This document shows positions 14,658 to 17,633 of a stretch of 25,126 bases of DNA, piece after piece. Location: the NCBI GenBank assembly GCA_005789925.1, contig SXWG01000156.1:1-25126 (forward strand), written 5' to 3'. The notes below the pieces were generated by a model. That model was given only the letters and a program-made list of their open reading frames with translations. It did not search any database and was not told the origin of the DNA. The stretch's first letter is position 1, and the number at the start of each line of letters is the position of its first letter. The position numbers and the translations under genes are program-made. The DNA comes from Actinomycetota bacterium. GTDB lineage: Bacteria > Actinomycetota > Acidimicrobiia > Acidimicrobiales > Ilumatobacteraceae.

Positions 14658-15449
14658 TTAGCGCGCACCGAACCACATCCCCGCTTGCACAATCGTGTCT
14701 GCCTCAACAAGCAAAACGACTTCTTGTGGCGACATGTCGAAACGGTGCACATCGACTTTTGCAACTGGTGTGATGCCGTCATGATGTTCCACCACGAAAC
14801 GCACGTTCTCGCGTAAGTGTCGGCTTGTGAGCAATTGCTCTTCCATGATCTCCCAGTACGCGGCGTTATTCATATGTTCCAGCGCATCGAAGTCCGAGAA
14901 GCGTGTCACCCACTGTGATGTCGAATGTAACGCCCCACTTGCTTGCACCACACTCGGCTTCACAACATGGCGTGCACCAACAACGCGGCCACCTGTTGAT
15001 GTCCCCCACACCTGATGAAGTGTCGGTGTGAGTTCTTTCGGCCGCATCGTCTTCATGTCGATGTGCACCCACAGTGCTGACGCATCGACCAGCACGCGAC
15101 CAGATTCATCGACCATCTGAGTGCGTCGCTCAGCCCAGTGCGACCCGAGACCAGCGACCCACGTCGCGAGCGAGAGGCGCTGAAGATAGGTCGGAAACGA
15201 GTGAACGTCGATCAGCGTGCGTCGCACCACCCATCCGTGCAGATCGTTACCGACGACTCCCGTGTCTTGACCGTCGTCTTTAGCGATGTCCTGCAGATAT
15301 CGAGCAAGGGAATCAAGTCGGCACCGGCCTCCAGGGCTTGCATCACCCAGACGGATAGGTCGTGTTGCTCGAAATAGCCGACCAGCGACCGGAGGTGCCA
15401 CGCAGTCGAGGGCGGCCACTTTGTCGTACAAGGTCACGACCTCGACCAT
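14658..15449 (-). CDS. Acyl-ACP thioesterase family (double hot-dog)
   Basis: IRLGDASPGGRCRLDSLARYLQDIA, WVVRRTLI, RFSDFDALEHMNNAAYW. Start ATG 15449 is likely but not certain. Confidence 0.85.
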   Translation of the reverse strand: MVEVVTLYDKVAALDCVAPPVAGRLFRATRPIRLGDASPGGRCRLDSLARYLQDIAKDDGQDTGVVGNDLHGWVVRRTLIDVHSFPTYLQRLSLATWVAGLGSHWAERRTQMVDESGRVLVDASALWVHIDMKTMRPKELTPTLHQVWGTSTGGRVVGARHVVKPSVVQASGALHSTSQWVTRFSDFDALEHMNNAAYWEIMEEQLLTSRHLRENVRFVVEHHDGITPVAKVDVHRFDMSPQEVVLLVEADTIVQAGMWFGAR

Positions 15450-15473
15450 AGAGCCCCACCTTCCTCCTCGCAC

Positions 15474-15490
15474 CCCTTGTGCCACAAGGG
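15474..15490. repeat. 17-bp palindrome CCCTTGTG-C-CACAAGGG, with a further half-site CTTGTGG at 15500-15506
   Basis: Read directly, in the divergent intergenic region between the thioesterase and the whiB7 leader. Confidence 0.7.
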
Positions 15491-15505
15491 TTTGGCGAGC
15501 TTGTG

Positions 15506-15546
15506 GAAAAACCGCTTGCCAGGGCTGACAAATGTGTGGTTAGGTT
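15506..15546 (+). promoter_or_regulatory. WhiB7/WblC-type promoter: A-tract GAAAAA, -35 TTGCCA, long spacer, -10 TAGGTT
   Basis: GAAAAA at 15506-15511, TTGCCA at 15516-15521, a 19-nt spacer, and TAGGTT at 15541-15546. An AT-rich box just upstream of -35 is the known WhiB7 AT-hook site. Confidence 0.65.
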
Positions 15547-15554
15547 GACACTTC

Positions 15555-15740
15555 ATGAGTTCAAACGCCGCTGCAAAAACCTTCTGGTCCACGGGTAGCC
15601 CCGTGGTCTTTGCTGCGCGCGCATTTTCCTATGCCGTGGCCTTTACGACCGCGACGTATGCCATGTGGTTTACCAAGCCGATGGCAGCGAAGCATTCGAA
15701 TAAGCGCACCGCCCGGCACCTCACGAAGGCTCAGATGTAG
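15555..15740 (+). CDS. Leader peptide (uORF) of the whiB7 attenuator, 61 aa
   Basis: ATG is 8 nt after the -10 box and the stop is 26 nt before the terminator stem. Contains 14 Ala and no Asp/Glu. Four of five Phe codons are TTT, atypical for this genome. Confidence 0.75.
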   Translation: MSSNAAAKTFWSTGSPVVFAARAFSYAVAFTTATYAMWFTKPMAAKHSNKRTARHLTKAQM

Positions 15741-15762
15741 CGAAAAGCTCCATACAAGCCGC

Positions 15763-15799
15763 AGAGGCCGCCGGGTTCCACGAACCGGGCGGCTTTTTT
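15763..15799 (+). terminator. Intrinsic terminator/attenuator between the uORF and whiB7
   Basis: Stem GCCGCC-G-GGTTC / GAACC-G-GGCGGC (15767-15793) with a CAC loop, followed by TTTTTT (15794-15799). Confidence 0.9.
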
Positions 15800-15838
15800 G
15801 TTGCCCACATTCACCTTCACACACAGAAAGCAGACACC

Positions 15839-16189
15839 ATGTACACAGCAATCAACAAAGAAATCGGCGGAGTCGCACTCCGTGAAGAGCCGGCACGTTT
15901 GTCGGCTCTGCGCTGCAGCGATGGCAACGGAACGTTGTCGTACCTCTTCTTCTCTGAGGAATACGTCGACATTCAGCGTGCCAAGGCGATCTGCGCCAAA
16001 TGCACATCTGCACGTGACTGCCTGCAAGGCGCCCTCGAACAGCTCGAGCCGTGGGGCGTTTGGGGAGGTGAGTTGCTCGAGATGGGACGCATCGTGGCAG
16101 TGAAGAAGCCACGAGGACGTCCACCCACAAAATCGCGCCCGGTCATCGAGATCGACGAGGTACCCATTCCTCGTCACCTCGTAGCCTGA
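15839..16189 (+). CDS. whiB7: WhiB7/WblC-like Fe-S transcription factor with AT-hook
   Basis: Four Cys (C-x25-C-xx-C-x5-C), EPWGVWGGELL turn, and C-terminal KKPRGRPP AT-hook. Confidence 0.88.
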   Translation: MYTAINKEIGGVALREEPARLSALRCSDGNGTLSYLFFSEEYVDIQRAKAICAKCTSARDCLQGALEQLEPWGVWGGELLEMGRIVAVKKPRGRPPTKSRPVIEIDEVPIPRHLVA

Positions 16190-16193
16190 CCAT

Positions 16194-16778
16194 GTGAGAA
16201 TCCGTCGGAATCTCCTTGTCTGGTCGACCGTGGCGGCACTTGTCGTCGCCATCGTCGGGGGTTGGCTGTTCAGCTCGGCCTCCGACGACGGCGTCGACGC
16301 CAATCTCACGAACCCGGGTGTCGTACAAGACCCCACCATCGGCACTAATGCGGTCTCACGTGGCGAGCAACTACCCGCAATCAATCTGCCCTCCGTGGCA
16401 ACGGGCGAGATGACCGCGATCTTCCCTCAGGGCCGCCCACTCGTCATCAACTTCTGGTTCTCCACCTGCGAGCCCTGTCGTCGTGAAATGCCGGCACTGC
16501 AAGATGTCAACCAACAACTGTCGGGCAAGGTCGACGTCATCGGCGTGAATCCGAATGACACTGCCGATGTCGCCGCACAATGGGCCGCTGACATCGGGGT
16601 TACCTTCCCGCTCTACACCGACCGCGATGCGGAACTTCTCACCAAAGTGGGAGTCGGCACCATGCCCACCACATTGTTCGTGTCCACTGACGGCGTCGTC
16701 GTCGACACCCATGCTGGTGAAATCACTGCCGACGAATTGCGTGCTGCCATCACCAAGAACTTCGGCATCAAGGCGTGA
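16194..16778 (+). CDS. TlpA/ResA-like membrane-anchored thiol-disulfide oxidoreductase
   Basis: N-terminal TM, VINFWFSTCEPCRREMP (CxxC), and MPTTLFV. TAGCCT-6nt-GTG start. Confidence 0.9.
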   Translation: MRIRRNLLVWSTVAALVVAIVGGWLFSSASDDGVDANLTNPGVVQDPTIGTNAVSRGEQLPAINLPSVATGEMTAIFPQGRPLVINFWFSTCEPCRREMPALQDVNQQLSGKVDVIGVNPNDTADVAAQWAADIGVTFPLYTDRDAELLTKVGVGTMPTTLFVSTDGVVVDTHAGEITADELRAAITKNFGIKA

Positions 16779-16781
16779 ACC

Positions 16782-17633
16782 ATGGAAGGTGATTTCGCCT
16801 ACAGCTTCATCCTCGGTGTACTTGCTGCCGTGAACCCATGCGGCTTCGTGTTGTTGCCGACCTATCTCTTGTACTTTCTTGGTCTTGAGAGCCATCGTGA
16901 ATCGACACAGACCGCGTCACTTCGTCGTGCGCTCACTGTCAGCGCGGCAGTGAGTGGCGGTTTCATCGCGGTGTTTCTCGTGGTCGGCATCATCACGCGC
17001 TTGTTCACCACTGTTCTCTCCGACAACGCCAAGTACGTCGGGCTCCTTGTTGGTGTAGTGCTCACCGTGATGGGTGTGGCGATGCTCACTGGGTGGAAGC
17101 CGACGTTCTTGCGACCATCAATCACTGCGGATCGTGACACCACCGTCCGGGCAATGTTCGTGTACGGCATCGCCTACGCGGTTGCATCAATCGGATGCAC
17201 CATCGGTCTTCTCACCACGGTCGTACTCGGTTCAGTCGGCCGCCACGGATTCGCGTCGGGCGTCGCAAGCATCGTGCTGTACGGCCTGGGAATGGCACTC
17301 TTCGTCACTGCACTCACCGTCACACTTGCCAGCGCGCAACGAGGGCTCCTCACATTTGCACGCAACAGCATGCGTCACGTCGACAGAGTGTCCTCGGTGT
17401 TCATCACGCTCGCAGGCCTGTACCTCACGTGGTACTGGTACGGAGCAGTCACAGAACGAGCGGCAGGTTCGATCACTGGCACTGTTGATGATTGGCAATC
17501 GTCGGTGACGTCGTTTCTACAAGATCAAGGTGCGTGGCGACTTGCCAGCGTATTCACACTGATCGTGGTCATCGCACTCGTCACGGTGCGAGTCGCGACA
17601 TCGTCCACGAATCGCGATCGCGAACGTATCTGA
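16782..17633 (+). CDS. ccdA: CcdA/DsbD-type cytochrome c biogenesis membrane protein
   Basis: AAVNPCGFVLLP and ASIGCTIG (the two conserved Cys), multiple TMs, adjacent to the TlpA-like gene. Confidence 0.85.
   Translation: MEGDFAYSFILGVLAAVNPCGFVLLPTYLLYFLGLESHRESTQTASLRRALTVSAAVSGGFIAVFLVVGIITRLFTTVLSDNAKYVGLLVGVVLTVMGVAMLTGWKPTFLRPSITADRDTTVRAMFVYGIAYAVASIGCTIGLLTTVVLGSVGRHGFASGVASIVLYGLGMALFVTALTVTLASAQRGLLTFARNSMRHVDRVSSVFITLAGLYLTWYWYGAVTERAAGSITGTVDDWQSSVTSFLQDQGAWRLASVFTLIVVIALVTVRVATSSTNRDRERI

Follow-up and report, generated by a model that had tools for sequence, protein, structure and literature searches.

The closest described counterparts of the locus considered here are the leaders of whiB7, which encodes a regulator of stress responses and antibiotic resistance, in mycobacteria and of wblC in Streptomyces coelicolor. 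The mycobacterial whiB7 leader combines an Ala-rich upstream open reading frame (uORF), a Rho-independent terminator and a WhiB7 gene with an AT-hook, and stalling of the ribosome on the uORF has been proposed to bring about antitermination. In the attenuation model of Burian & Thompson 2018 and Lee, Lee & Roe 2022, full translation of the uORF leads to termination and impaired translation leads to antitermination. The S. coelicolor wblC leader (Lee, Lee & Roe 2022, Mol Microbiol 117:179) is also a uORF riboregulator with a conserved antiterminator and terminator and responds to translation inhibitors and amino-acid starvation. Ten actinobacterial whiB7 uORFs were reported to contain 25-40% Ala, the only residue found to be enriched (Poulton et al., 10.1101/2023.06.02.543512). 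The same study showed that the composition of the uORF dictates which starvations induce whiB7, that induction by Trp starvation was blunted once the M. smegmatis uORF had lost its only Trp codon, that genes for 18 of the 20 amino acids scored as hits in a screen and that loss of the uORF start codon raised basal whiB7 expression (10.1101/2023.06.02.543512). The Ala content of the uORF has since been tied to trans-translation and transfer-messenger RNA (tmRNA) (Majstorovic et al. 2025, 10.1101/2025.10.10.681568). In the present work, a 61-codon open reading frame (ORF) upstream of a whiB7 ortholog was analyzed in a 25,126-nucleotide stretch of DNA from an Actinomycetota bacterium (assembly GCA_005789925.1, contig SXWG01000156.1, positions 1 to 25,126), referred to below as the window.

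The 61-codon ORF at 15555-15740 is very probably the leader peptide of a ribosome-mediated transcription attenuator of the whiB7/wblC type, identity and mechanism being judged together. The layout points to this assignment because a terminator and a WhiB-family gene with an AT-hook lie 3' of the ORF. The elements follow one another in the order promoter, leaderless-type uORF, antiterminator strand, Rho-independent terminator and whiB7 (Table 1), and the terminator begins about 30 bases past the uORF stop. The whiB7 product matches Pfam PF02467 with E=1.5e-11 and is the only one of the five Wbl paralogs of the genome that has an AT-hook. A first-pass annotation made from the letters of this DNA had taken the ORF for a leader peptide upstream of whiB7, which the layout, the WhiB domain and the AT-hook bear out.

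Table 1. Elements of the whiB7 leader region, in window coordinates.
Element	Position	Strand	Remarks
A-rich stretch, candidate WhiB7 AT-hook site (autoregulation)	15505-15513	+	just 5' of the -35; function suggested by mycobacterial WhiB7 promoters
-35-like hexamer TTGCCA	15516-15521	+	aligns with TTGACn/TTGCAA conserved over 97 related loci
TGG, then -10-like hexamer TTAGGT	15537-15545	+	18 nt downstream of the -35; 9 nt upstream of the uORF ATG
uORF, 61 codons plus TAG	15555-15740	+	from ORF translation; frame kept in all relatives
Hairpin P1, codons 12-18	15589-15606	+	paired in 100% of cells (20 species); 2 of 6 pairs compensatory
Trp codon W38	15666-15668	+	Trp conserved in every relative; ATGTGGT context invariant within the genus
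Arg codon R51	15705-15707	+	directly 5' of the antiterminator strand; C and G invariant in 26 of 26 family representatives
Antiterminator 5' strand GCCCGGC	15711-15717	+	can pair with GCCGGGT at 15770-15776, the terminator 5' arm (partial-transcript fold)
Rho-independent terminator	15767-15799	+	11-bp interrupted GC-rich hairpin at 15767-15793, about -20.6 kcal/mol, then T6 at 15794-15799
whiB7 ortholog, 116 aa	15839-16189	+	WhiB domain, EPWGVWGG motif, C-terminal RGRP AT-hook

The host is an uncultured lake bacterium of the acIV group (labelled Ilumatobacteraceae), represented by a metagenome-assembled genome (MAG) of 1.5 Mb that is 63% complete and has 57% G+C. Proteins closely related to this WhiB7 are encoded in MAGs from lakes and rivers, which are labelled Ilumatobacteraceae, Acidimicrobiaceae, 'acIV' or just Actinomycetota, and a whiB7 gene was found in 32 of the 36 sampled species of the same genus. 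The comparison set comprised 97 loci, corresponding to 66 distinct leader peptides that were grouped into 22 sequence clusters. The same module recurs over the 97 loci: AT-rich DNA, a -35 of the form TTGnnn, a spacer of 17-18 nt ending in TGn, a -10-like TTnnnT and, 8-10 nt later, an ATG. The uORF that follows is 45-63 codons long in the relatives, with the terminator after it. Alignment gaps within the uORF measure 3, 6, 12, 15 or 21 nt, all multiples of three, and those between the stop codon and the T-run measure 1, 2 or 5 nt. The start and stop positions of the uORF are kept throughout. The frame-preserving indels, together with the conserved start and stop, suggest that the uORF is translated. 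In one relative (L019, G022:C103), the conserved uORF ATG and the usual promoter are lost and the frame runs from an ATG further upstream; this leader may have been rearranged.

The manner in which translation of the uORF begins was considered next to the promoter. The distance from the -10 to the ATG is 8-10 nt, mostly 9, in all of the 66 distinct relatives, and none of them has a Shine-Dalgarno sequence before the uORF. The fixed short distance argues for leaderless or near-leaderless initiation, and the contigs of four RNA libraries, none of which reaches upstream of 15570, are a weak hint in the same direction, as contigs give no true ends. A generic sigma-70 scan called no promoter in the window and also missed the main terminator, owing to its internal mismatch; both elements were placed by comparison with the relatives. 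The AT-rich site upstream of the -35 consists of ATTAAATC-like DNA at the same place in most relatives and is weaker in the window, where only an A5 run is present.

The leader RNA as a whole is more structured than shuffled sequences (z -3.3). Its terminator is 97% paired over 20 species, with two compensatory pairs. The internal hairpin P1 is directly followed by a U-rich sequence that includes a TTT codon, and the two may together act as a pause element for RNA polymerase. To locate the antiterminator, each transcript was folded only up to the terminator loop. In 12 of 12 genus representatives, the 5' arm of the terminator then paired with a segment of the uORF ending 15-19 nt before the stop codon; in three of the 12, the fold additionally assigned part of the arm to a remote segment. 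Among the species of the genus, 91% of the cells are paired and both strands are invariant. Between genera, the arm occurs as GCCGCC, GCCGCT and GCCGTC, and the uORF segment carries matching changes. In the sister clades the duplex is strong, with z values of -2 to -5.8. The conserved Arg codon that abuts the antiterminator strand lies 11 codons before the stop in seven of seven clade peptides counted by hand.

Three further features of the leader RNA were recorded. A hairpin containing the uORF stop codon occurs in the sister clades (L008, L014, L017, L005, L011 and relatives; A2 columns 193-214), and in other genera in a different sequence form; compensatory changes affect five of its six pairs, although no more than 69% of cells are paired in the alignment. 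The window clade has no convincing counterpart, the hairpin being absent or weak at 15725-15760. The GCGCGCGC block at 15610-15627, which encodes Ala-Arg-Ala(-Phe), is common to the window clade and to distant genera of the family (L094, L119, L104, L116), is self-complementary and is affected by a 15-nt deletion in other species of the genus. Finally, a Rho-loading region, C-rich and G-poor, was considered for the uORF and rejected, no marked GC skew being found there.

The composition of the uORF peptide is clearly atypical for its genome. It contains 14 Ala, 8 Thr, 6 Ser, 5 Phe, 2 Trp and 2 Tyr residues, hence 9 aromatics, and no Asp or Glu, exactly the counts given in the first-pass annotation. 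There is one AAA and there are two AA runs. The background consisted of 984 long ORFs of the same genome, and all p values are nominal binomial values. Ala makes up 23% of the peptide against 10.8% of the background (p=0.004, or about 0.08 when corrected for 20 residues), Phe, Trp and Tyr together 15% against 6.7% (p=0.018), Ala, Ser and Thr together 47% against 24% (p=1e-4), and Asp plus Glu zero against 11.4% (p=7e-4). Among 38,369 windows of 60 residues taken from the long ORFs of the genome, at least 14 Ala occurred in 1.3%, at least 9 aromatics in 4.3% and no Asp or Glu in 0.7%; the Ala and aromatic features coincided in 0.018% and all three in none. Since these features were picked after the sequence had been viewed, their joint rarity is a description and not a test. 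The window peptide has no tandem codon run of the trpL or pheL type: the aromatics are dispersed and the only run is the one Ala triplet.

The codons are also unusual. TTT is used for four of the five Phe and TAT for both Tyr, whereas genome-wide TTT accounts for 23% of Phe codons and TAT for 34% of Tyr codons; six TTT or TAT among seven Phe and Tyr codons, at an expectation of about 27%, gives p~0.002. The bias is family-wide. In the uORFs, Phe is encoded by TTT in 64% of cases, Tyr by TAT in 84% and Asn by AAT in 61%, compared with 22%, 8% and 27% in the adjacent whiB7 genes, at an equal G+C content of 0.65 at third codon positions. The earlier remark that TTT and TAT are uncommon in neighbouring genes thus extends beyond the window.

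Composition was then compared over the orthologous uORFs. The 66 peptides contain 12-27% Ala (mean 19%), 6-19% Thr (mean 13%), 6-17% aromatics (mean 10.8%) and 0-6% Asp plus Glu (mean 1.7%). Each peptide was divided into a tail, the last 14 codons, where a ribosome would cover the antiterminator strand, and the remainder, termed the sensing part. Ala amounts to 24% of the sensing part and 5% of the tail, aromatics to 12.5% and 5.7%, and Ala, Ser and Thr together to 47% and 21%; the tail is 27% basic. Relative to background, the sensing parts of the 22 clusters are enriched in Ala (2.2-fold, 22 of 22 clusters above background), Thr (2.4-fold, 22 of 22), Tyr (1.9-fold, 22 of 22), Phe (1.9-fold, 21 of 22), Trp (1.7-fold, 22 of 22) and Met (2.0-fold, 20 of 22). 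Conversely, Leu is reduced to 0.2 times background (0 of 22 clusters above), Gly and Asp each to 0.3 times (1 of 22), Ile to 0.3 times (2 of 22), Glu to 0.01 times and Cys to 0.04 times (0 of 22 for both). All 66 distinct peptides, which had not been selected for Trp, carry this residue at a distance of 21-28 codons from the stop. The Ala and aromatic enrichment described for the single peptide is therefore conserved among its orthologs, and Thr, which had not been weighed before, is as enriched as Ala.

By analogy with the mycobacterial and Streptomyces systems, the leader would probably operate as follows. Transcription would start at the uORF ATG or a few bases 5' of it. An unhindered ribosome, moving over the last 11-14 codons to the stop, would cover or sterically block 15711-15717, so that the masked antiterminator strand leaves the terminator at 15767-15799 free to form and whiB7 stays off. 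A ribosome stalled within about the first 47 codons would instead allow the antiterminator strand to pair with the 5' arm of the terminator and, with this arm sequestered, RNA polymerase would read through into whiB7. The position of the strand near the stop codon is what would leave it free when the ribosome is held early and masked when the ribosome finishes. WhiB7 would then presumably raise the activity of its own promoter. The range of stresses sensed would be set by the codons of the first part. In this leader and in all relatives, Ala, Thr, Ser, Phe, Tyr, Trp and Met abound there, Phe, Tyr and Asn mostly have U-ending, wobble-read codons, and Leu, Gly, Asp, Glu, Ile and Cys are scarce. 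The best response would be expected to a shortage of Ala, Thr, Met or aromatics, and to drugs of the peptidyl-transferase centre that arrest the ribosome after Ala, Ser or Thr.

The response to drugs can be put in more specific terms. Arrest of the ribosome by chloramphenicol and linezolid occurs mainly with Ala in the penultimate position, to a lesser degree with Ser or Thr, and is relieved by Gly in the A site (10.1101/2021.06.17.448903, 10.1101/2021.08.10.455846, PMC9303264). Of the 46 positions in the sensing part of the window peptide, 12 have Ala as the penultimate residue and 23 have Ala, Ser or Thr, where proteome composition would give about 5 and about 11. Gly is depleted threefold in the sensing parts of the family. 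Given the frequency of penultimate Ala, Ser and Thr and the scarcity of Gly, the leader should be very sensitive to phenicols and oxazolidinones, and sensing of phenicols and linezolid by it is plausible. Antibiotic stall sites have not yet been tested in any whiB7 uORF (PMC12121999).

Whether the composition is specifically tuned to these stresses is, in our estimate, evenly balanced. The view of the peptide as a sensor tuned by its composition, as first put forward, fits the anatomy and survives the comparison of orthologs, and the enrichment is located where a stall should induce; part of the composition, on the other hand, appears to originate at the level of RNA. Several observations weigh against the attenuator or its tuning. 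Orthologs and clusters share ancestry, so the counts given above are not independent trials. No compensatory change was found in the antiterminator within the genus. In the window clade, the antiterminator consists of 7 bp and a short second helix and is no stronger than in shuffled sequences (z -1.2; 23 of 200 shuffles reach it). When the full-length window leader was folded, the antiterminator strand paired with codons 26-28, a pairing that is absent from the genus consensus and that, if real, would narrow the sensing window. At 23% (12-27% in the relatives), the Ala content is at or below the published 25-40% of other actinobacterial uORFs. The evidence from RNA consists of contigs only, with no true 5' or 3' ends, no strand, no levels and no DNA-run control. 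In one freshwater library, a contig covering 15578-15832 had a depth of 88 and the contig of the whiB7 ORF a depth of 5.3, and in a second library the depths were similar; the difference fits attenuation and is a weak hint of it. Moreover, the RNA contigs of two lake studies and the sister species L002-L004 share a G in place of T at 15609 (Phe19 to Val), indicating that the transcripts seen come from close relatives and not necessarily from the strain of the window.

A further reservation concerns the level at which the uORF is constrained. The entropies of the three codon positions are 0.83/0.61/0.87 in the uORF and 0.47/0.34/1.20 in whiB7 of the same species. The ratio of nonsynonymous to synonymous differences (pN/pS) is 0.75 in the uORF and 0.28 in whiB7, and the synonymous divergence is 0.40 and 0.63, respectively. 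Many conserved codons of the uORF, namely ACC, ACG, GTG, the TTT after P1, TAT, AAG and CGG, show no synonymous variation, a sign that the RNA or the codon itself is constrained. Conserved composition thus goes with islands of nucleotide conservation. Constraint on the RNA, and not selection on the amino acids, may account for much of the conservation and for part of the Ala and Thr codon content; the nucleotide-level conservation, including the conserved internal hairpin, suggests that the composition is in part a by-product of RNA structure. Carried to its end, this line of thought makes the attenuator a real but generic sensor of translation stress, in which the Ala, Thr, aromatic and TTT/TAT content merely results from reading P1, the U-rich stretch, the GCGCGCGC block and the antiterminator in frame. 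The flat entropies and the low synonymous divergence agree with such a sensor, as does P1 itself, which encodes a Thr/Ala-rich stretch in most relatives. However, P1 of the window has no Ala codon and the peptide is still 23% Ala, and at alignment columns 23, 25, 27 and 39 Ala is kept across three or four synonymous codons; a Ser, a His, an Asn and an Arg also vary synonymously with the residue retained. The enrichments and depletions hold in the 22 clusters despite a high turnover of the peptide, and in M. smegmatis it is the uORF composition that sets the starvation response (10.1101/2023.06.02.543512). A generic sensor is therefore regarded as possible but somewhat doubtful.

The possibility was also considered that the peptide acts through its sequence. 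In TnaC and SecM, a Trp inside the exit tunnel slows the ribosome or brings it to arrest. A comparable role could be played by the invariant Trp of the uORF peptide together with its basic KH-x-NKR or TKRP segment, the aromatics then being contacts of the nascent chain and not hungry codons. The occurrence of Trp in all 66 distinct uORFs, the invariant Arg and the synonymous variation of the His, Asn and Arg codons in the basic segment would be expected of such an arrest peptide. It is nevertheless quite improbable, since the spacing from Trp to Arg varies between 11 and 17 residues among genera and leaves no motif of fixed spacing, the overall constraint on the peptide is weak and the window peptide has no macrolide-type +x+ motif. 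Furthermore, the Arg codon abuts the antiterminator strand, so that a cause at the RNA level is equally likely, and a stall at the basic segment would cover that strand and favour termination. It is highly improbable that the ORF encodes a small protein with a function of its own, such as a membrane peptide whose cytoplasmic tail is basic. The middle of the peptide is indeed rich in aromatics, Ala and Val, acidic residues are lacking and the C-terminus is basic, but a Kyte-Doolittle value calculated by hand reached only about 1.15 for the best 19 residues, below the usual cut-off of 1.6, with an Arg in mid-segment, and orthologs have Asp and His in the hydrophobic segment. The membrane peptide was rejected on the hydropathy and on these acidic and His residues. 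The pN/pS of 0.75, the lack of any match of the uORF peptide in NCBIfam and Pfam and the position between the whiB7 promoter and the terminator, which is fixed over 97 loci, likewise speak against a small protein. Hardest of all to credit is a purely RNA-based leader whose ORF is not translated. Its strong nucleotide-level conservation and its structure would suit such a leader, but indels in the ORF are all multiples of three as opposed to 1, 2 and 5 nt downstream, the distances from the -10 to the ATG and from the antiterminator strand to the stop are fixed in the relatives examined, and an Rfam scan of 15000-16400 at E<=1 matched no family.

With the whiB7/wblC-type attenuator preferred, the differences from the known systems can be stated. 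Sensing of Ala and of an aromatic residue, Trp, through a whiB7 uORF has already been published and is known in kind; aromatic limitation, which the first-pass annotation had proposed as a new input, is not new in kind, because Trp sensing through one uORF Trp codon was described in M. smegmatis (10.1101/2023.06.02.543512). The single Trp codon is a feature that the M. smegmatis uORF shares with the leaders described here, in which Trp is invariant across the family, whereas the uORF of M. tuberculosis has none. Unlike the uORFs surveyed by Poulton et al., in which only Ala is enriched, those of this family are co-enriched in Thr and the three aromatics. The strong bias towards TTT, TAT and AAT and the 11-codon tail, fixed in the clade representatives counted, further distinguish them from the mycobacterial leader. 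The host differs as well, being a streamlined planktonic member of the Acidimicrobiia with a genome of about 2 Mb, in which the system was read from sequence alone. Compared with the S. coelicolor wblC leader, no similarity of leader peptide or RNA sequence was found, and P1 and the stop-codon hairpin of the sister clades are specific to the present lineage.

More distant systems share part of this logic. In the classical leaders trpL, pheL, hisL and ilvL, the ribosome at hungry codons chooses between antiterminator and terminator, and the position of the stop codon likewise lets a ribosome that completes the leader cover the antiterminator strand. Here, in contrast, the Ala, Thr and aromatic codons are dispersed, the target is a regulator and not a biosynthetic operon, and no conserved anti-antiterminator (1:2) helix of the classical type was found in the leader. 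The phenicol leaders of cat-86 and cmlA are also short ORFs on which a stalled ribosome switches the RNA structure. They have 5-9 codons and specific arrest sequences and control the initiation of translation, whereas the present leader has 61 codons and no known specific arrest motif and would control the termination of transcription.

The results extend the whiB7 uORF attenuator, described from mycobacteria and Streptomyces, to a bacterial group that ranks among the most abundant in fresh water. They also provide a natural series of 66 leader variants in which Ala, Thr, aromatics, Met, U-ending Phe, Tyr and Asn codons and one Trp are kept while the sequence drifts, a useful background for experiments that relate uORF composition to the stress range of whiB7. 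Caution is advised, as the composition signals come partly from RNA structure, and no new mechanism is revealed. A bolder proposal is that the whiB7 leader of acIV/Ilumatobacteraceae is a dedicated nutritional sensor, with an obligatory Trp checkpoint, slow, wobble-read codons (TTT, TAT and AAT) and a set palette made up of Ala, Thr, Met and aromatics that excludes Leu, Gly, Glu, Asp, Ile and Cys, so that whiB7 in these cells, which are streamlined and probably in part auxotrophic, would report mainly the supply of a particular set of amino acids and not antibiotics. This is considered unlikely.

Candidate whiB7 uORFs were also seen in other families of the order and of the phylum. Ala is abundant in many of them, a lone Trp occurs in several and some end in a C-terminus of the RP-x-G type. 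L134, L140, L135 and L142, from other families or classes, are Ala-rich, and several of them have a single Trp followed by a basic segment resembling K-H/P-A-R-R. These are hints that the pattern of a Trp and a basic tail may be wider than the family. Beyond the family, the promoter pattern and a simple terminator rule placed starts and terminators unreliably, and quantitative statements are limited to the family. In a member of the same family with 4.8 Mb (G151:C1:679973-681201), two whiB7-like matches on one strand are separated by about 650 bases and look like a tandem duplication.

In the window, the whiB7 stop codon is followed after 4 bases by a gene for a thioredoxin-fold, ResA/DsbE-like thiol-disulfide oxidoreductase (16194-16778, + strand) and then by a hydrophobic 283-aa ORF (16782-17633). 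whiB7 may be co-transcribed with redox or cytochrome-maturation genes. Upstream of the whiB7 promoter, on the opposite strand, lies an acyl-ACP thioesterase-like gene (14658-15485, - strand; PF01643/PF20791). As listed, with the first GTG as its start, this ORF comes to within about 30 bases of the whiB7 -35 element; its true start may be an internal ATG-Met 12 codons further in.

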